Source: a virus (Duplodnaviria > Heunggongvirae > Uroviricota > Caudoviricetes). From it: a stretch of DNA of 41,798 bases. The position numbers were made by a program, and so were the translations under genes. Location: positions 1 through 41,798 of the IMG/VR virus record IMGVR_UViG_2563366805_000010. One strand, written 5' to 3'. Numbering within the stretch: the first letter of the stretch is position 1; each line of letters begins with the position of its first letter. Positions 5,644-41,798 of the stretch are shown here, piece by piece. The notes beneath the pieces were generated by a model. It ran no database searches. It was not told where the DNA came from and was given only the letters and a program-made list of their open reading frames with translations.

Positions 5644-5916
5644 TTAAACTTGAGATTCACCGCAGAACGGGCAGAAACTCATTTTTACGTTGGTTTCTAG
5701 GCGGTTCAGGTTTTTAGCCATTTCGCCGTTTTTCTTTTTGGCCCGGTACGCCAGTTTGTATTTCAGCATCATAAACAGTTTGCCTTCGGAAAGAGAAAGA
5801 ACCTGATTATCCCAACCGGTATCAAAAGTGCTTTCGCTTACTTCAGCACCTTCCGGAACCTTCTCTTTCAGTCGCGCTTCGATATGAGCACCGACCTCAT
5901 TAATGCAGTTGCACAT
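5644..5916 (-). CDS. Hypothetical protein (90 aa) with terminal Cys pairs (possible zinc ribbon)
   Basis: ATG preceded by GAGGG SD; N-terminal CNC and C-terminal CPFCG; same AT-rich block as the 196-aa gene. Confidence 0.55.
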   Translation of the reverse strand: MCNCINEVGAHIEARLKEKVPEGAEVSESTFDTGWDNQVLSLSEGKLFMMLKYKLAYRAKKKNGEMAKNLNRLETNVKMSFCPFCGESQV

Positions 5917-5926
5917 CCCTTATCCC

Positions 5927-6124
5927 TCAAAATTTCGCGTCATAACCCGCTGGCGTTTCGTCAGCGTGAATGATGCCTTCGACTGGATAGCAGTTAGTGA
6001 CGCCCATTTGCTCACTCGCTGCCGCTTCACATTGCTGCTGATTGTCGATAATACCGACAACAGCGTCCTGGTAATCACCGTTCGTCATGGTGATGGTCAG
6101 CACTAATGCGTACAGGGCTCCCAT
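5927..6124 (-). CDS. Small hypothetical protein (65 aa)
   Basis: Start chosen at internal ATG that overlaps the upstream stop as ATGA; the longer 108-aa track ORF would overlap the upstream gene out of frame. Confidence 0.4.
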   Translation of the reverse strand: MGALYALVLTITMTNGDYQDAVVGIIDNQQQCEAAASEQMGVTNCYPVEGIIHADETPAGYDAKF

Positions 6125-6324
6125 CAGTGAGTCCCCGCAGGCACAAGATTTGGTTCGATGGTGCGTGAGGCATAAGGGCGTCGAATGTTGCGCAGGTTGC
6201 CCTGCGGTTCGTGCCAGTAGGTGCCGTCGCGGTAGTCGTAGGAAACCTGCCATGCTGCGCCGGTGCGGCTGTTGCGCATTACGACAGCACGACCGTTATT
6301 TGGTACTGGGTTAGCAGCTTTCAT
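6124..6324 (-). CDS. Small hypothetical protein (66 aa)
   Basis: ATG preceded by GGAGG SD; early position in the PL transcript. Confidence 0.5.
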   Translation of the reverse strand: MKAANPVPNNGRAVVMRNSRTGAAWQVSYDYRDGTYWHEPQGNLRNIRRPYASRTIEPNLVPAGTH

Positions 6325-6410
6325 GAAATAGCCTCCACGAATTCTGCGAAGCTGAGCGCTACTTCACCTTCAGCCAGACTTTCGAAATATTCCTCGTATG
6401 CCTTTTCCAT
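6321..6410 (-). CDS. Very small acidic ORF (29-31 aa)
   Basis: MEKAYEEYFESLAEGEVALSFAEFVEAIS; stop overlaps next ATG as ATGA; first ORF after the predicted PL; weak evidence. Confidence 0.2.
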   Translation of the reverse strand: MEKAYEEYFESLAEGEVALSFAEFVEAIS

Positions 6411-6490
6411 TCTCATCCCCTTGCCGTCTTCCCGGCTGCCAGAACTTTTACCCGGGCATTCGCGTTTGAATGCGTTGTTTGGATGAGCTA

Positions 6491-6554
6491 ACAATAGCTA
6501 AAGCGATTATTTGAGTCAATCGCTTAAACGATAATTTATTTAGCTAAAGCGATA
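6491..6554 (-). promoter_or_regulatory. Leftward early promoter PL with operator cluster OL
   Basis: On minus strand TTGACT-17 nt-TATTGT; overlapped and flanked by three sites with ATCGC half-sites (atagctaaagcgatt, atcgcttaaacgat, ttagctaaagcgat) matching the OR operators. Confidence 0.5.
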
Positions 6555-6652
6555 ATTTTATGATTTATAAGATTATTTATTTGATTGGGAAATGTGCGAT
6601 GAAATGATATTAGCGAAGGAATTGGGGGAATTTTAATCAGGTCAGGAACAAT

Positions 6653-6672
6653 AAAAAACCCGGCAAGCCGGG
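6653..6672 (-). terminator. Rho-independent terminator downstream of cI
   Basis: GC hairpin CCCGG-CAAG-CCGGG followed on minus strand by a T-run, directly after the cI stop; A-run on the other side could make it bidirectional. Confidence 0.6.
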
Positions 6673-6673
6673 T

Positions 6674-7366
6674 TTATGCGAAGCGCTTGTACTCTATTGA
6701 TTGTCTTAGTAGCACTTTAGCCATTACGTAGAACTGATCTTCGTCTTCTGACTCAACATACCATTTCTCGTAGATAGGGTTGTCTGAGATGACAGCAAGC
6801 CGATCTCTTTGCATCTGAAGTCTTTTGACGTGCAGAGTTTTTCCGAACACAAATACGTAAACGCCATCACCATCAAAATGAGTCACGCCAGTATCAACAA
6901 AAATTTGATCTCCTGGTGAGATGGTTCCATCCATGCTGTCGCCGTTAACAGTGATAACTTTTACATTATCTGCGGGGCGGTTTCCGAAAAGTGCGCGAGC
7001 CTGTTCAGTTGTGTATTCGATTGCTCTTATGGTTTCGATAAAATCACTGGTAACTAGCGAGCCAGGACCGGCGCTGGCCTTAACGTCAAGCACATCCACG
7101 CGGTAAACCTCATTCATAACTGGTTTAATTTGGCATAGCGTGTTTGCTTCGCGAATGCCAGATTCCAACATCTCACCTTGCCCCGTTGAAAGCCATTCAG
7201 GACGCACACCCAGAACAGATGCGATCTCTACTGTTTTTCGTGAGCCGTTCGCACCTTTAAGTAACTTATTTACGCTGGACTGAGCCATGCCTACATCTTT
7301 CGCCAGCCTAGCCTGCGTGTATCCAGCGACGTCCATTGCGTGCCCTAAGCGTTCTGAGAATCCCAT
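6674..7366 (-). CDS. cI: CI-type phage repressor (HTH + S24 LexA-like peptidase domain)
   Basis: 230 aa; N-terminal HTH (TQARLAKDVGMAQSSVNKL); C-terminal autocleavage domain with GDSM serine and KRL lysine; AAGAGG SD; divergent from cro. Confidence 0.9.
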   Translation of the reverse strand: MGFSERLGHAMDVAGYTQARLAKDVGMAQSSVNKLLKGANGSRKTVEIASVLGVRPEWLSTGQGEMLESGIREANTLCQIKPVMNEVYRVDVLDVKASAGPGSLVTSDFIETIRAIEYTTEQARALFGNRPADNVKVITVNGDSMDGTISPGDQIFVDTGVTHFDGDGVYVFVFGKTLHVKRLQMQRDRLAVISDNPIYEKWYVESEDEDQFYVMAKVLLRQSIEYKRFA

Positions 7367-7393
7367 AAAAGCCTCTTTTTAAGTCCTCTTTAA

Positions 7394-7467
7394 ATAGTAT
7401 CGCCAAGGCGATTGTTTGGCAAAGAATCGCATAGGCGATTGACAATCGCTAAAGTGATATACATAAT
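7394..7467. promoter_or_regulatory. OR region: divergent PRM and PR with three palindromic operators
   Basis: PR TTGACA (7439-7444)-17 nt-CATAAT rightward; PRM on minus strand TTGCCA-17 nt-TACTAT leftward; operators ATCGCCAAGGCGAT (7399-7412), ATCGCATAGGCGAT (7426-7439), ATCGCTAAAGTGAT (7445-7458). Confidence 0.6.
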
Positions 7468-7494
7468 CGCTTTAAACTGATAGCTGAGGTGATT

Positions 7495-7728
7495 ATGAAG
7501 AACCCCGCAGTAGAAAAAGCGATTGCCCTTGTCGGTAGTCAGAAAGAGTTAGCTAAACGCTGTGGAAAGGCTCAATCAACGATCTGTGATTGGTTGAACG
7601 GGAAGAAGCGTATTTCTCCTGTTCATGTCCCAGACCTTGTTAATGCCGTTAACGGAGAGATTCAGGCATACGAATTTCGGCCTGATCTTCCATCCATTTT
7701 TCCACATCCAAATAACCACGCCATTTAG
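7495..7728 (+). CDS. cro: Cro-like HTH repressor
   Basis: 77 aa; HTH segment QKELAKRCGKAQSTICDWLNGKK; GAGG SD; first gene of the PR transcript. Confidence 0.8.
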   Translation: MKNPAVEKAIALVGSQKELAKRCGKAQSTICDWLNGKKRISPVHVPDLVNAVNGEIQAYEFRPDLPSIFPHPNNHAI

Positions 7729-7769
7729 TCAAACCAGTGGCGTAACTCACTTTATGAGGATTATCACCC

Positions 7770-8090
7770 ATGGAGAACGCAATCGCACGAAAGTTAGACC
7801 CGCCAGTTATCAATCCGGTTGAGATCGAAAGCGTCCTGCTCAACCGGCTTGCATCAGTGGGCCAGAAGTCTTACGCCGAGCATATGGGCATCAGCGAGTC
7901 GACAGCCAGCAGGCGTAAAGCCGAAGGGCATTTCAGCACCATGGCGAAAGAGCTGGCCTTCCTGGGGATTCAGGCCGCACCACCGGAAGCAGTGCTGGTA
8001 TCGCGTGAATATCTGGCCTCAGTCGAAACGCTCGCTGATATCGGGCTGAAAGCCGAACGGGCAAGGCCGGGGCCGCTGGGGTGGGATTAA
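7770..8090 (+). CDS. cII: CII-like transcriptional activator
   Basis: 106 aa; IESVLLNRLASVGQKSYAEHMGISESTASR resembles lambda CII (IESALLNKIAMLG...); position after cro. Confidence 0.8.
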   Translation: MENAIARKLDPPVINPVEIESVLLNRLASVGQKSYAEHMGISESTASRRKAEGHFSTMAKELAFLGIQAAPPEAVLVSREYLASVETLADIGLKAERARPGPLGWD

Positions 8091-8093
8091 ACC

Positions 8094-8349
8094 ATGAACC
8101 ATATCGAATTCATCGAAAAGCATGTGCGTGAAGAACTGCTGAAGCTCGGTTTCTCTCTGGGTGTGGCTCAGGGGGGGGGCGTTCCAGGCTATCGACATGT
8201 ACAAGCGCATGAGCCAGGCAAGCAGAAAGGGGAAGATTTTTGATGATGTTTTACGGCACGCAAAACTGTGGGCGGAGAAGCAGCAGTTACCCGCTGACCG
8301 CTTTGAGAAGCGAAAAGTTAAACGGAACGCCCAGCCGGGCCTGTTCTGA
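8094..8349 (+). pseudogene. Hypothetical gene split by a G9 homopolymer frameshift
   Basis: ATG 8094 opens a 49-aa frame that passes through nine G at 8171-8179 and stops at 8241-8243; the +1 frame continues to 8349; loss of one G gives a continuous ~84-aa ORF. Confidence 0.4.
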
Positions 8350-8427
8350 AAAGGCGAAAGCCGCTGTGCACGAACACAAGCGGCTCTCAGGTGCAACAAA
8401 CGTCAGTAAATTGCGAGGTTAATTCTA

Positions 8428-8592
8428 ATGCCAAAGAGCAAAAAGTACCAGGAAAATGAGGAACGACGCCTTCAGGATTCCCCTGACGGGCTGGTGGTTG
8501 CCGCGTCAAAAAACAGGGCGTTCGCCGAACGTCTTGTTGGCGTGATCCGTCTGGCTCTCGCTACGTCGGGAGTGAAAAATGGGCGTCGTTAA
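8428..8592 (+). CDS. Small hypothetical protein (54 aa)
   Basis: Below track cutoff; ATG with GAGG upstream; 3' end overlaps the O-like gene start. Confidence 0.3.
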   Translation: MPKSKKYQENEERRLQDSPDGLVVAASKNRAFAERLVGVIRLALATSGVKNGRR

Positions 8593-9469
8593 GTTAGCAG
8601 ACTACAGGCCGCCGCTGGAGGTCGTGGAGCATCGCGTGGCGCAGCTGGAAGATGGTTTTACTCGTGTTGCTAATGAGCTTCTCGATGCTGTCATGGCATC
8701 CGGACTAAGCGAAACAGAGCTGTGTGTCGTCCTCGCTGTTTGGCGCAAGACGTACGGCTACAACAAGAAGATGGACTGGGTTAGCAATGACCAGCTTGAG
8801 CAGATGATTGCCAAGCATCACACACACTGTTCGACTGCAAAAAATCAGCTTGTTGCCAAAAAAGTCTTGGTCCAGGAGGGGCGTAGCGTGGGTATGAATA
8901 CCAGCATCATCGAGTGGAAAACAAAGATTAACGGATTCTGCAAAACATTAGCTAAACCTGCTAAGGATTCTTTAGCGGAAGTTGCTAATAAAAACTTAGC
9001 TGAAAGTGCTAAGGAAACATTAGCGGAAGGTGCTAAGGATGATGGTGAAACCTTAGCAGAATCTGCTTTTGAAACTAAGCAGGATCTGCTAACCACAAAA
9101 GACAATATACAAAAGACAATAAACAATACCCCCCTACCCCCAGAGGGGGAGTGTGTCGGGCAGGAAGAAAAACCTGTCACAAAGAAAACTCAGATCGACT
9201 ACCAGGCGGTGCTGTCTGCATACAACACCACCCTGGGAGACCGCCTTCCCCAGGCAGAGGCACTAAACGACAAACGTCGCCGTGCTATCAAACGCCTGCT
9301 GACCGAACTGAAAGAGCCAACCGTCGAGGCGGTGGAGAATTACTTCGCCGCTTTCGCTGAGCGAGCACCAAAGTTTTACTTCGGTGAGAACGACAGAGGC
9401 TGGCGCGCCAGTTTCGATTATCTGTTGCGCTCTGACACCCTGCTGAAAACCAGGGAGAAAGCGCTATGA
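8579..9469 (+). CDS. Replication initiator (lambda O-like replisome organiser)
   Basis: N-terminal EDGFTRVANELLDAVMASGLSETELCVVLAVWRKTYGYNKK typical of the phage replisome-organiser N-domain; iteron-like repeats inside the gene; followed by helicase. Confidence 0.8.
   Translation: MGVVKLADYRPPLEVVEHRVAQLEDGFTRVANELLDAVMASGLSETELCVVLAVWRKTYGYNKKMDWVSNDQLEQMIAKHHTHCSTAKNQLVAKKVLVQEGRSVGMNTSIIEWKTKINGFCKTLAKPAKDSLAEVANKNLAESAKETLAEGAKDDGETLAESAFETKQDLLTTKDNIQKTINNTPLPPEGECVGQEEKPVTKKTQIDYQAVLSAYNTTLGDRLPQAEALNDKRRRAIKRLLTELKEPTVEAVENYFAAFAERAPKFYFGENDRGWRASFDYLLRSDTLLKTREKAL
8946..9067 (+). repeat. Iteron array (putative origin) inside the O-like gene
   Basis: About five tandem ~24-bp units with core TTAGC(G/T)GAA..GCTAAGGA encoding LAExAK repeats; followed by an A-rich stretch and a CCCCC-AGAG-GGGGG hairpin at ~9129-9150. 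Confidence 0.55.
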
Positions 9470-10863
9470 CCGACATGAACATGATCCCGCAGAACATCGA
9501 AGCCGAACAAAGTGTGCTGGGCGGCATGATGCTGGATAGCGGTAGCGATCGCTGCCAGACCGCCATGTCGATGCTCAAACCAGAATCGTTCTACATCCGC
9601 CCCCACCAGGTGATTTTCGCCGAGATGCGGGAGCTGGCAGCCAACCAGAAGCCTATCGACCTGATCACCCTGATTGAGTCGCTGGAATCTAAAGGGCTTG
9701 GCGAGCAGGCTGGTGGCTTCGCTTACATGGCCGAGATATCCAAAAACACTCCCAGCGCGGCGAACATCGTTCACTACGCCATGCTGGTGCGCGAGAAAGC
9801 CATGGAGCGTTACGGCATTGACAAGCTGAACAGCGCCACCGAGCTGCTGTATTCCCGCAACGGGATGACCACCAGCCAGAAGTTTGACGCTATTCAGACC
9901 CTGTTCACTGATATCGCTGACTACGCGAAAACCGGTAACCGCCGGGGGCTCCGCGAGTTTTCGGAAGTGATGGGCGACTGGGTGGACGAGGTGGAAGCGC
10001 GCTGGAGCGACTCAGACGCAACGCGTGGACTGTCGACGGGGATTGGCTCGCTGGATGACCTGCTGCAACCGAAAGGACTGGTTAAAGGCGCTCTGATGGT
10101 GATCGGCGCACGTCCGAAGATGGGTAAAACCACGCTGTATAGCCAGCTGGCCGTCAACTGTGCCGAAGTTGAGCAGCTCCCCGCGCTGATGTTTAGCCTC
10201 GAAATGCCGGATAAGCAGATTGTGGAGCGCATGGTGGGGCAGGTGAGCCGCGTAAATACCGATGTGTTTTATGGCGATCGGTACGACGACACAAAAGTCG
10301 CAATGGCCTTTGCTGCCGCTGGACGGCTGGCCCAGAACGGAAACCTGTACGTCGACGACACGCCCGGGATCACGCTGGCGCATATCGTCGCAGAGTCACG
10401 TCGCATCAAACGCGAACGCGGCGCTGTCGGCATGGTGCTGGTGGACTATCTGACCCTGATGACCGCCGACAAGGCTGACCGTAACGACCTGGCCTACGGG
10501 ATTATCACGAAGGGGCTGAAGAACCTGGCGAAGGAACTGAACTGCATCGTGGTGCTGCTTACCCAGCTGAACCGTGATCTGGAGAAGCGCACTAACAAAC
10601 GCCCGATGCCGAGTGATTCCCGCGACACCGGGCAGATTGAGCAGGATTGTGATTACTGGATCGGCATCTACCGCGAAGGCGCATACGACGAAAACGCAGA
10701 TCAGGCGGCTACCGAATTGCTGTTGCGCCTGAACCGCCACGGCCCGACCGGCGTTGTGTATTGCGACCAGCGCAACGGTGCGATCTACGACTGTGACCAG
10801 GCTGCTGCTGAGCAGAAACGCCGCGCGAATGATGCCAGACCCAACAAAAAGAGGGAATTTTGA
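9466..10863 (+). CDS. dnaB: DnaB-family replicative helicase
   Basis: 465 aa; Walker A GARPKMGKTT, Walker B region VLVDYLTLM; N-terminal DnaB-like domain. Confidence 0.9.
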   Translation: MTDMNMIPQNIEAEQSVLGGMMLDSGSDRCQTAMSMLKPESFYIRPHQVIFAEMRELAANQKPIDLITLIESLESKGLGEQAGGFAYMAEISKNTPSAANIVHYAMLVREKAMERYGIDKLNSATELLYSRNGMTTSQKFDAIQTLFTDIADYAKTGNRRGLREFSEVMGDWVDEVEARWSDSDATRGLSTGIGSLDDLLQPKGLVKGALMVIGARPKMGKTTLYSQLAVNCAEVEQLPALMFSLEMPDKQIVERMVGQVSRVNTDVFYGDRYDDTKVAMAFAAAGRLAQNGNLYVDDTPGITLAHIVAESRRIKRERGAVGMVLVDYLTLMTADKADRNDLAYGIITKGLKNLAKELNCIVVLLTQLNRDLEKRTNKRPMPSDSRDTGQIEQDCDYWIGIYREGAYDENADQAATELLLRLNRHGPTGVVYCDQRNGAIYDCDQAAAEQKRRANDARPNKKREF

Positions 10864-16319: not shown

Positions 16320-16643
16320 ATGAAAATGCCATACAAACAAGATTTCATCGCTGCGCTACTTGCCGCCAAGGAGCAGGGTATTGGTGCAATGCTGGCTTTT
16401 ATCATGGCGTATCTGCGTGGTCGCTATAACGGCGGCGCGGTAACAAAAACGCTAATTGATGCGCTGATGTGCGCGATGATTGCCTGGTTCGTTCGTGACC
16501 TTCTGGACTTTATCGGCCTGAGCAGCAACCTCGCCTACATAGCCAGCGTCTTTATTGGATACATCGGCACCGATTCGATCGGCAATCTGATTAAAAAACT
16601 TGCAGCAAAAAAGGCGGGAGTTGACGATGCAAACCAGTCCTGA
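16320..16643 (+). CDS. S: Class I holin (lambda S-like)
   Basis: Near-collinear with lambda S (MKMP...AKEQGIG...[10 protein letters not shown]...SNLAYI...[13 protein letters not shown]); MKM dual-start motif; GGAGGTGAGG SD. Confidence 0.9.
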
Positions 16644-39819: not shown

Positions 39820-40421
39820 TGAATAAAGCCGTATTAAATAACGAACTCATTGCCACAAAGACGGGAGATATTACCGTTTATAATTATGATGGTGAAACGC
39901 GGGAATATATTTCTACATCAACTGAATATCTTGCTGTTGGCGTCGGTATCCCGGCATGTTCTTGTTTAGATGCGCCAGTTACACATAAAGCTGGTTATGC
40001 TATCTGCCGCTCAGCAGATTTTAACTCATGGGAATATGTGCCAGACCATCGCGGTGAAGTTGTCTATAACACCGAAACGGGAGAATCAAAAGAAATCACA
40101 GCTCCGGGTGATTATCCTGAAAACACGACCACTATCGCCCCGTTAACGCCATACGATAAATGGGATGGTGAGAAATGGGTAACAGATACTGAGGCACAGC
40201 ATAGCGCAGCAGTCGAAGCGGCAGAAGCACAGCGTCAGTCACTGATTGATGCTGCAATGGCTTCCATTAGTCTGATTCAACTGAAATTACAGGCCGGGCG
40301 GAAGCTGACGCAGGCAGAAACAACCCGCCTTAACGCTGTGCTGGATTACATTGACGCGGTGATGGCAACAGATACCAGCACAGCGCCGGATGTCATCTGG
40401 CCTGAACTGCCGGAGGCGTAG
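39819..40421 (+). CDS. Tail fibre assembly protein (Tfa)
   Basis: 200 aa; stop/start coupled to fibre gene; C-terminal [10 protein letters not shown]. Confidence 0.75.
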
Positions 40422-40812
40422 GCCATTCAATATCGAGTGCTGTTGAAGTATTAATACGCATCAATAGCACTCGATATTTTTTCCATGCCAGTAACAGTTT
40501 CGTTTCATCATTTGTTGCCATACCTAAATCAACCGCATCCTGAAGCGGAGCTATTACATTCGTTGCCTCTGCTATCAGTGCAGATTTCTTTTCATCATTT
40601 ATTAAGGCTAATTGTTCTGGTGTTGGAGAAGGACGGTCAACAATGACAGGATGACCGTTCTCACCACAGGTAATCATTTTTGTTACACTCTGTGCATTAA
40701 TCAGTGTTTTCCACTCTGATTCCGAGATTTCCACTGCATCATCAGGAATATTGGTGCCGTGAAATTCAGTCGAATAAAATCCGTTTGTCGATGCAGAATA
40801 AAAATATGACAT
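40393..40812 (-). CDS. Alternative tail fibre assembly protein (Tfa')
   Basis: 139 aa on minus strand; C-terminal DIEWPTPP parallels the plus-strand Tfa; start 5 nt after the minus-strand fibre cassette stop. Confidence 0.6.
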
Positions 40813-40816
40813 TTTG

Positions 40817-41177
40817 TTAATATCCCATTGCAATGTAATACGCATCAGCAGATGAACCGTATCCTGAACCGGGCGATACTGTAATATCAAATCCAGTGTT
40901 ATGGACATTTGTCGCCGATACAGTCGGCTGCCCTGACGCGCCAGTAACGTTCAATGTAACTGTGACAGCAAGGACTCTTGAGAATGTCATCGGGAACCTC
41001 ATCCCGTATATTGAAGATACATTCGGGGAGCCATTCAACTGACCGCACTGTAAAATTAATCCAGACGGAAATTTTTGCGCAGCAGCCGTTGCGGTATTAC
41101 TTGACGCGAACAGGCTCATATCAGGTATCTGATTCGCCCCTGTACCTACATTCCTTTTAGCTGCTTCTCCCAAACCA
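40817..41177 (-). other. Silent alternative tail-fibre C-terminal cassette
   Basis: Minus-strand frame open from the right crossover site (codons for VGLGEAAK) to TAA at 40817; no start codon or SD of its own. Confidence 0.6.
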
Positions 41178-41190
41178 ACCTTTTTTATAA
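41165..41190. repeat. Right recombination site of the invertible segment
   Basis: TTCTCCCAAACC-AA-CCTTTTTTATAA, resembling gix/hix-type sites (memory-based comparison), about 60 bp upstream of the invertase gene. Confidence 0.55.
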
Positions 41191-41220
41191 CCATCAAAAA
41201 TCTGGTGATGCTTCGCCGTT

Positions 41221-41243
41221 TCTCCTGTTTTCATAACAGGAGA
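41221..41243 (+). promoter_or_regulatory. Perfect 9-bp-stem hairpin containing the invertase Shine-Dalgarno
   Basis: TCTCCTGTT-TTCAT-AACAGGAGA; the 3' arm holds AGGAGA located 7 nt upstream of the pin ATG. Confidence 0.35.
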
Positions 41244-41249
41244 AATCCC

Positions 41250-41798
41250 ATGATTTACGGTTATGCCCGAGTATCAACAAACCACCAGGACACTGAATTG
41301 CAACTAACGGCGCTCAAGTCAGCGGGTTGTGAGAAAATTTTTGAAGAGCATGCCAGCGGGAGGAAATCGAATCGGCCGGTTCTAAAACGGCTGATCGCCA
41401 CTATGCAGCCGGGGGATGAACTGGTGGTCTGGAAGCTGGACAGGATAGGCCGCAACGTTCTGCATGCGCTGTTGATGTTCCAGCAGTTACAGGAAAAGGG
41501 TATCAACTTCCGCAGTATTACCGATGGCGTGGATCTCAAAACAGCCAGCGGCCGCTATAACTTTCGTAACATCCTTTCCGCAGCACAATATGAATCTGAT
41601 CTTAATAGCGAACGTACCTTAGCAGGGCTGGCCGTAGCCAGGGCAAAAGGGCGAGTTGGTGGTCGCAGGCCTAAGTTCACGGATGAGCAATGGCGGGAAA
41701 TGGGGGAGCGGATGGCAACCGGTGAATCACGACAAAGCGTATCAAAAACGTATGGAGTAGGGCTCTCAACTCTGTATAAAAAGTTTCCAGCTAGCTGA
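41250..41798 (+). CDS. pin: Serine-recombinase DNA invertase (Pin/Gin/Hin family)
   Basis: MIYGYARVSTNHQD with catalytic Ser, resolvase-type catalytic domain and C-terminal HTH (GESRQSVSKTYGVGLSTLYKK); stop codon is the last triplet of the window. Confidence 0.9.
   Translation: MIYGYARVSTNHQDTELQLTALKSAGCEKIFEEHASGRKSNRPVLKRLIATMQPGDELVVWKLDRIGRNVLHALLMFQQLQEKGINFRSITDGVDLKTASGRYNFRNILSAAQYESDLNSERTLAGLAVARAKGRVGGRRPKFTDEQWREMGERMATGESRQSVSKTYGVGLSTLYKKFPAS

Follow-up and report, generated by a model that had tools for sequence, protein, structure and literature searches.

Which DNA sequence does the repressor of a lambda-like prophage recognise, and how are its binding sites arranged around the promoters that have to be kept silent? 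This question was raised by the immunity region of the IMG/VR virus record IMGVR_UViG_2563366805_000010, a Caudoviricetes sequence of 41,798 bp that was analysed at its full length and is referred to here as the window. In this region the genes cI (6674-7366, minus strand) and cro (7495-7728, plus strand) diverge from an intergenic gap of 128 bp, with the right operator (OR) between them and the left operator (OL) beyond the end of cI. The region is the standard on/off control of a lambda-like, myovirus-tailed Escherichia coli prophage, in a textbook arrangement. As judged from the sequence, in a cassette spanning approximately 6487-7757 the CI repressor would very probably bind as dimers to six operators of the form ATCGC-N4-GCGAT, giving a lambda-like silencing of the promoters PR, PL and PRM.

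The six sites are 14-bp palindromes with 0 to 2 mismatches to ATCGCNNNNGCGAT, gathered in two clusters on either side of cI. In the right cluster, OR3 (7399-7412, ATCGCCAAGGCGAT) is a perfect palindrome that fills the spacer of the predicted PRM and touches its -10 hexamer, and OR2 (7426-7439, ATCGCATAGGCGAT), also a perfect palindrome, has one base in common with the -35 hexamer of the predicted PR and lies 3 bp upstream of the PRM -35 hexamer. OR1 (7445-7458, ATCGCTAAAGTGAT, 21.7 bits in the weight matrix described below) falls wholly inside the 17-bp PR spacer. In the left cluster, OL1 (6494-6507, ATAGCTAAAGCGAT, 22.8 bits) lies over the -10 hexamer of the predicted PL, OL2 (6519-6532, ATCGCTTAAACGAT, 23.0 bits) abuts its -35 hexamer, and OL3 (6540-6553, TTAGCTAAAGCGAT, 18.7 bits), the weakest OL site with 2 mismatches, is placed just upstream of the promoter. 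A decayed fourth OL site (6563-6576, ATTTATAAGATTAT), with 6 mismatches, was found 23 bp beyond OL3. The sites are unequal in quality, the perfect palindromes being OR2 and OR3, not OR1, and the weakest matches OR1 and OL3. The 4-bp centres consist of A and T only at OR1, OL1 and OL3 (all TAAA) and at OL2 (TTAA), in contrast with those of OR2 (ATAG) and OR3 (CAAG). An initial annotation of this DNA, made from the sequence alone, had described three 14-bp OR sites overlapping divergent PR and PRM, and three related sites at a PL about 850 bp to the left. All of them were present, with the promoter hexamers where it had placed them; the left sites occupy 6494-6553 and the gap between OL3 and OR3 measures 846 bp.

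The first alternative to be weighed was that these repeats are functionless chance similarities in AT-rich intergenic DNA. The enrichment of the motif over the whole window is indeed only mild when two mismatches are allowed (42 matches, 29 being expected). However, when no more than one mismatch to ATCGCNNNNGCGAT was accepted, 9 matches were counted in the window against 2.6 ± 1.35 in shuffled sequences, none of 100 shuffles reached 9, and five of the nine sit in the two 60-bp clusters, 120 bp in total. An unguided repeat search recovered the same repeat families and no other repeated motif in OR or OL. In addition, a weight matrix was made from 33 distinct sites of related loci, leaving out those of the window and of its near-identical copy (locus L006). 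With this independent matrix the six sites took ranks 1 to 6 in the 41.8-kb window (18.3-23.0 bits), the next match reaching 13.9 bits, and the maxima of the shuffled sequences had a mean of 12.7 bits, with one at 19.8. The motif search across the window thus bears out the statement of the initial annotation that ATCGC half-sites are common to OL and OR.

No further or distant operators stood above noise in the 41.8-kb window by the weight matrix, and several candidates were discarded. The match at 7480-7493 (12.5 bits), which includes the cro Shine-Dalgarno sequence, and that at 7510-7523 were at chance level, as were the four matches outside the immunity region that differ by no more than one base. 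The same was found, by both count and matrix, for 9536-9549 (ATAGCGGTAGCGAT, 1 mismatch) and 9559-9572 (ACCGCCATGTCGAT, 2 mismatches), which are 23 bp apart at the start of a DnaB-like gene. A further sequence, ATCGCTTTAAACTGAT at 7466-7481, coincides with the predicted start of PR; its left half is consensus, its right half is poor and its centre has 6 bp. It is semi-conserved among relatives, but not in Klebsiella phage Mulock.

Megablast against a phage collection gave only flank matches, in Citrobacter phage Omnitron, and for this reason the relatives carrying the same repressor were reached by protein-level search. This yielded Mulock and three related Klebsiella prophages (the ST13-OXA48phi12.5 group), whose CI is 81% identical to that of the window; E. 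coli prophage relatives showed 77-95% DNA identity. A scan of one genome per species added eight more loci in Apirhabdus, Citrobacter, Leclercia, Enterobacter, Trabulsiella and Escherichia, with CI N-terminal domains 72-100% identical to that of the window, whereas L014, another product of the genome scan, was rejected as a short spurious match. Twelve related loci were compared, Mulock representing its group. All twelve carry the CI recognition helix MAQSSV[N/H/F]KLL, and the six sites are kept wherever the sequence is available, with centre-to-centre distances of 19 bp (OR1-OR2), 27 bp (OR2-OR3), 25 bp (OL1-OL2) and 21 bp (OL2-OL3).

The initial annotation had made its interpretation depend on the conservation of the sites among phages with the same repressor, and this conservation was found: in the twelve loci the half-sites are kept, while the 4-bp centres and the flanks vary. 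Sites are retained both in position and in half-site sequence among loci of only 73-77% DNA identity. In the 10 distinct OR sequences, 25 of the 30 half-site columns were invariant, and the mean entropy was 0.118 bits in half-sites, 0.722 in centres and 0.296 in other intergenic columns (permutation p = 0.003). At OR3 the entropy was 0.047 bits in half-sites against 0.92 in the centre, among the 10 distinct relatives, and the half-sites of OR2 are invariant in all relatives (entropy 0), its centre being ATAG or the complement CTAT; OR2 is thus found in both orientations, as expected of a symmetric site. OR1 is the most variable OR site, with 1-3 mismatches at a constant position, and in Mulock the imperfect half is on the opposite side (ATCTC...GCGAT against ATCGC...GTGAT in the window). 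On the left, every relative with OL sequence has the OL1 halves ATAGC and GCGAT, around a TAAA, CAAG or TATG centre; the constant deviation from ATCGC is explained by the overlap of OL1 with the PL -10 hexamer, to which it gives the TA of TATTGT or TATTAT. The OL2 halves ATCGC and ACGAT are invariant around five different centres, and the OL3 site is always at the same position, with variable halves. This is the pattern that would be expected of protein-binding sites, and not of sequence kept for another reason. Taken with the shuffles and the matrix ranks, the conservation entropy effectively refutes chance similarity, to which we assign practically no probability.

Some peculiarities of the relatives deserve mention. 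A fourth OL site, decayed in the window and in L005, is recognisable in many of them 23 bp beyond OL3 (AATGTTAAAGCGAT, ATTGTTAAAGCGAT, ATTGATATGGCGAT). L003 (at about 2970), L007, L009 and L010 carry a perfect ATCGC-N4-GCGAT inside a ydaT-like gene, about 722 bp to the right of OR2. Its centre is ATCC, TTCT, CTCT or TACT and it encodes LIA[S/T]AM; synonymous changes have destroyed it in L004 and L011. This site could correspond to the additional operator that HK022 has downstream of OR, or it could be a coding coincidence, and the weight-matrix scan gave no equivalent in the window. In L003 and L004 (989-1465) and in L010-L013 there is a gene between cI and OL, where lambda has rexAB, encoding a putative periplasmic lipoprotein in L003; this gene moves OL 340-520 bp further from OR. 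Finally, the cI frame of L008 (Leclercia adecarboxylata) ends at 208 codons instead of 230, with intact operators, and this prophage may be decaying. Mulock, the ST13-OXA48phi12.5 group and the E. coli, Enterobacter and Citrobacter prophages L003-L013 nevertheless form one immunity group with the window, having the same helix, the six operators and their spacing, and differ from it in centres and flanks and, in some cases, in the fourth OL site, the lipoprotein gene between cI and OL and the replacement of cII by ydaT. No experimental study of this group was found in the literature.

The complementary comparison proposed by the initial annotation, that with heteroimmune relatives, gave the same picture from the other side. 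Three siblings, E. coli ET846, E. coli ET791 and Citrobacter phage Omnitron, match the window at 94-100% identity on the left as far as 6486-6495 and on the right from 7757-7759 onwards, and between these breakpoints they are unrelated to it or only about 68% identical. The left breakpoint falls right at the PL -10 hexamer. Inside the breakpoints, the three siblings, Omnitron included, have repressors and repeats that differ from those of the window; the repeats are HK022-like TGAAC/GTTCA in ET846 and of the TTAGC/GCTAA type in ET791. Since siblings with the same flanks differ inside, PL/OL-cI-OR-cro (6487-7757, as delimited by these homology breakpoints) is swapped as a block in which the operators change with the repressor.

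All three promoters are predictions. PR (7439-7467, plus strand) consists of TTGACA at 7439-7444 and CATAAT at 7462-7467, separated by a 17-bp spacer, with 11 of 12 consensus matches. PRM (7394-7422, minus strand) has the -35 hexamer TTGCCA (7422-7417), a 17-bp spacer and the -10 hexamer TACTAT (7399-7394); its predicted leader of about 21 nt contains an AAGAGG Shine-Dalgarno sequence ahead of the cI ATG. PL (6491-6519, minus strand) has TTGACT (6519-6514), again a 17-bp spacer, and TATTGT (6496-6491), with leftward start at about 6484. A consensus scan of 6200-7800 gave three promoter-like sites, all of them interlocked with the palindromes. The hexamers are kept in the relatives although the surrounding DNA differs: TTGAC and CATAAT of PR are invariant in all of them, PRM appears at the same place as TTGCCA/TTGCTA and TAGGAT/TAGAGT, and PL has TTGACT/TTGACC/TTGATT at -35 and TATTGT/TATTAT at -10.

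The product of cI has 230 amino acids (693 bp) and matches Pfam Peptidase_S24 (6e-19), HTH_3 (5e-5) and Phage_CI_repr, as well as PHROG 4, transcriptional repressor (5.5e-59). Its N-terminal domain (residues 4-62) aligns with the corresponding domain of the repressor of phage 434 (residues 3-62; E 3e-5), and comparison with HK022 CI gave 55% identity overall, 71% over residues 86-229 at the C-terminal side and 36% in the N-terminal part. By its sequence, CI is therefore a mosaic of a 434-type N-terminal domain and an HK022-type S24 C-terminal domain. In an alignment with UmuD, the catalytic Ser and Lys of that protein (GDSM and VKKLQ) fall on S144 (GDSM) and K181 (VKRLQ), and the linker contains a putative cleavage site, A99-G100, within KASAGPG. 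Helix 3 is AQSSVNKLL (residues 28-36), and the residues aligned to 434 Q28, Q29 and Q33 are Q29, S30 and K34, respectively. In the crystal structures of the 434 repressor-operator complex, the contact of Q28 is with base 1 (A) of the 14-bp operator, and those of Q29 and Q33 are with the bases after it. A kept Gln together with a kept A at base 1, and altered residues together with altered bases 2-5, fits these contacts by analogy. The cro product, of 77 amino acids, is of the YdaS/HTH_3 type (Pfam YdaS_toxin, 2.9e-14, and HTH_3; PHROG 35), with the helix-turn-helix SQKELAKRCGKAQSTICDWLNG. Its helix 3 opens with KAQST where that of CI has MAQSS, so that AQS is common to both, a parallel to 434, whose repressor and Cro have QQS in common.

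The two proteins raise a second alternative, namely that Cro alone, or another regulator, is the ligand of the palindromes and that CI recognises a different sequence. The Cro helix-turn-helix is invariant in all 13 loci carrying the sites, and therefore conservation alone cannot separate Cro from CI. However, those loci conserve the recognition helix of CI just as well, a swap of the cassette replaces cI, cro and the repeats together, and OR and OL hold no other repeated motif. Moreover, three of the sites are at PL, where a lysogen needs repression by CI, and the AQS start of helix 3 belongs to CI as much as to Cro. We consider it very improbable that CI has its operators elsewhere, and binding of CI to the six palindromes is the reading retained here.

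With CI as the ligand, the position of each site suggests how the switch would work. CI on OR1, in the PR spacer, and on OR2, abutting the PR -35 hexamer, would exclude RNA polymerase from PR, and CI on OR3, in the PRM spacer, would shut off cI transcription as a negative autoregulation. On the other side, occupation of OL1 at the PL -10 hexamer, OL2 at the -35 hexamer and OL3 just upstream would keep the leftward operon silent. The six sites are most likely read by Cro too, with other preferences, so as to turn PRM off and later damp PR and PL, and DNA damage would most likely lead to induction by RecA-stimulated self-cleavage of CI at A99-G100 through S144 and K181. In vivo, the CI protein of HK022 forms a loop between OL and OR, and its binding to neighbouring operators is cooperative (PMC8053113); as the C-terminal domains of the two repressors are 71% identical, an OL-OR loop of about 0.9 kb is plausible by analogy. 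The sequence itself shows the sites, their placement among promoter-like hexamers and genes, how they are conserved and co-vary with the repressor, and the domains of the proteins; binding by CI and Cro, the filling order, activation of PRM from OR2, looping and self-cleavage we infer from the anatomy of the region and from homology.

Several points weigh against this lambda-like interpretation. The related loci are not independent samples, and several of them have nearly identical OR sequences. The number of promoter-like sites is no higher than in shuffled sequences (3 against 2.6 expected in this AT-rich stretch), and for this reason the promoter calls rest on position and on conservation in the relatives. 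A lambda-like filling, with OR1 first and OR3 last, is not readable from the match to the consensus because OR2 and OR3 are the best palindromes. The centre of OR2 is at about -45.5 relative to PRM, 3 bp upstream of its -35 hexamer; in lambda, OR2 lies about 3 bp nearer to the PRM -35 hexamer, which makes activation of PRM uncertain here. In addition, literature searches found no binding, transcription or immunity data for the window repressor.

These considerations lead to a third alternative, in which the parts are the same and the wiring is not that of lambda: the affinity hierarchy of the sites would arise mainly from the uncontacted 4-bp centres (indirect readout), as in 434, or from strong cooperativity, as in HK022, and not from how well the half-sites fit the consensus, and PRM would perhaps not be activated from OR2. 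Central bases affect the affinity of the 434 repressor, and the window repressor combines a 434-type N-terminal domain with an HK022-type C-terminal domain. The all-A/T centres are found at the sites next to the lytic promoters, and most relatives show the same trend, although the OR1 centre of L013 is G/C-rich (CAGG). That OR2 and OR3, and not OR1, are the perfect palindromes also speaks for such a wiring, and so does the strict conservation of the unequal spacings (19/27 and 25/21 bp). We regard it as possible, though rather less than an even chance, and it would refine the lambda-like reading and not contradict it.

How far the system resembles those already known was examined feature by feature. 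With lambda it has in common the divergent cI and cro, a tripartite OR over PR and PRM, a tripartite OL at PL, cII after cro and a repressor of the S24 self-cleaving type. The sites, however, have 14 bp in the window and 17 bp in lambda, the spacings are 19/27 bp (OR) and 25/21 bp (OL) against about 23-24 bp, and the predicted PRM transcript has a Shine-Dalgarno leader, that of lambda being leaderless. The window also lacks rexAB, and its OL and OR are about 0.9 kb apart against 2.3 kb in lambda (PMC8053113). The common features with phage 434 are the homologous N-terminal domain, 14-bp operators with a 5+4+5 structure opening with A, and the helix Gln (434 Q28, window Q29). The half-site differs (ATCGC against ACAA(G/T) in 434), as do S30 and K34 (434 Q29 and Q33) and the HK022-like C-terminal domain, and N-terminal-domain similarity is low overall, so that the window and 434 should be heteroimmune. 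The ACAA...TTGT half-sites of 434 are not those of the window sites, which share with them the 14-bp format alone.

HK022 resembles the window in the C-terminal domain (71% identical), an OL-OR distance below 1 kb and the absence of rex genes (PMC8053113 and the HK022 sequence). In contrast, its operators are TGAAC-N5-GTTCA (TGAACCATAAGTTCA) and its N-terminal domain is 36% identical, which places the window outside HK022 immunity. HK022 also has an additional operator downstream of OR, to which nothing above noise corresponds in the weight-matrix scan of the window, and the window has neither nun nor a recognisable put RNA. In summary, the region is laid out as in lambda, has the site format and N-terminal domain of 434, and is like HK022 in its C-terminal domain and its compactness; the ATCGC specificity, as far as sequences tell, is none of these. 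The literature on HK022 and H-19B gave no operator sequences, and no paper describing the operators or the repressor of the Mulock group was found in the literature searched; the recognised sequence, ATCGC-N4-GCGAT, appears to be undescribed.

Closer N-terminal domains, 54-58% identical to that of the window, were found in HK639 (L020), Stx1 phage SH2026Stx1 (L019) and APC_JM3.2 (L022). The cI-cro gap of each contains three 14-bp 5+4+5 palindromes opening with AT, spaced by 24 and 25 bp against 27 and 19 bp in the window. HK639 and SH2026Stx1 have ATAAC-N4-GTTAT sites and ISQPAIQKM as helix 3, and APC_JM3.2 has ATAGC-N4-GCTAT and MSQPSVWKL. These three phages all have AT at bases 1-2, while their bases 3-5 vary together with helix 3, and with the window the correspondence is AQSSVNK with CGC, SQPAIQK with AAC and SQPSVWK with AGC. 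ST104 was considered as a fourth sister specificity (ATACG-N4-CGTAT), but there is one clean OR copy only and its OL side has a different repeat, and no claim is made for it. From these sequences we would tentatively propose, without holding it to be the probable outcome, that several classes of 434-type N-terminal domains read AT-NNN-N4-NNN-AT with bases 3-5 tracking the helix, and that, within the immunity group of the window, the A/T content of the centres sets the occupancy order in place of the half-sites, given that OR2 and OR3, and not OR1, are perfect palindromes.

At the end of cI, an intrinsic terminator (6656-6675, minus strand) consists of the stem AAACCCGG-CTTG-CCGGGTTT followed by the T-run TTTTATTG. 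The terminator that the initial annotation had placed at the cI stop was thus recovered, the hairpin and T-run (6675-6656) overlapping the stop codon at 6674-6676, and an equivalent hairpin is present in Mulock and L005. Its observation that no rexAB-like genes follow cI also held: the 120 bp from the cI stop to OL3 contain no open reading frame (ORF) of at least 20 amino acids, and no rex-like gene was found.

Downstream of PL, the leader RNA at 6411-6486 (minus strand) folds into three hairpins inside an outer closing stem (-26.1 kcal/mol, z = -2.7). The heteroimmune siblings have this leader at 96-100% identity, and some 16 nt at its start (CTCATCCAAACAACGC) are found again in more distant relatives. 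No N-like gene was seen to the left of PL and the leader had no Rfam match; a search of 5900-8700 against Rfam at a permissive threshold gave two sub-threshold matches, both from the cI terminator hairpin, and no put- or nut-like family. The 86 bp at 6325-6410, which form most of a 31-amino-acid acidic ORF (MRMEKAYEEYFESLAEGEVALSFAEFVEAIS, PHROG 2061, function unknown), are absent in the three heteroimmune siblings, where the PL leader is joined directly to the 66-amino-acid gene found at 6124-6324 in the window. On the other side of the immunity region, a cII-like activator gene (7770-8090, plus strand; Pfam Phage_CII, PHROG 725) lies outside the exchangeable cassette. No lambda-type CII box (TTGC-N6-TTGC) was found near cro or cII, and the PRE promoter was not located.

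The stretch 6300-7800 is 100% identical to E. coli TOK-001 in a comparison covering those positions, and in this strain the element is located between kch and yciI. Its genes include an integrase, a lambda-like early region and myovirus-type baseplate genes, and the whole window appears to be a prophage. According to the TOK-001 annotation, a tRNA-Asn gene lies at about 16400-16475, just upstream of the lysis genes (window coordinates, being those of L015 minus 2000), and at the right end (40140-41540) a recombinase-family gene adjoins oppositely oriented tail-fibre-assembly genes, which suggests an invertible tail-fibre segment.

The immunity-region interpretation of the initial annotation is supported by the sequence analyses as a whole. 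This has little significance beyond annotation and brings no new principle; the comparisons point to a system of a very well-known kind whose immunity specificity is new. The type is rare in E. coli, where at most 18 of 5426 complete genomes gave any match, part of these in the flanks only, and it is also present in prophages of Klebsiella, Enterobacter, Citrobacter, Leclercia and Trabulsiella. As the analysis defines the operators, the promoters and the cassette limits of this immunity type, homoimmune prophages can be predicted. The repressor/operator pair is predicted to be probably orthogonal to those of lambda, 434, P22 and HK022, and, if the helix code and the centre rule were both true, these phages would provide a natural recognition code on a small scale, together with several orthogonal pairs of repressor and operator.

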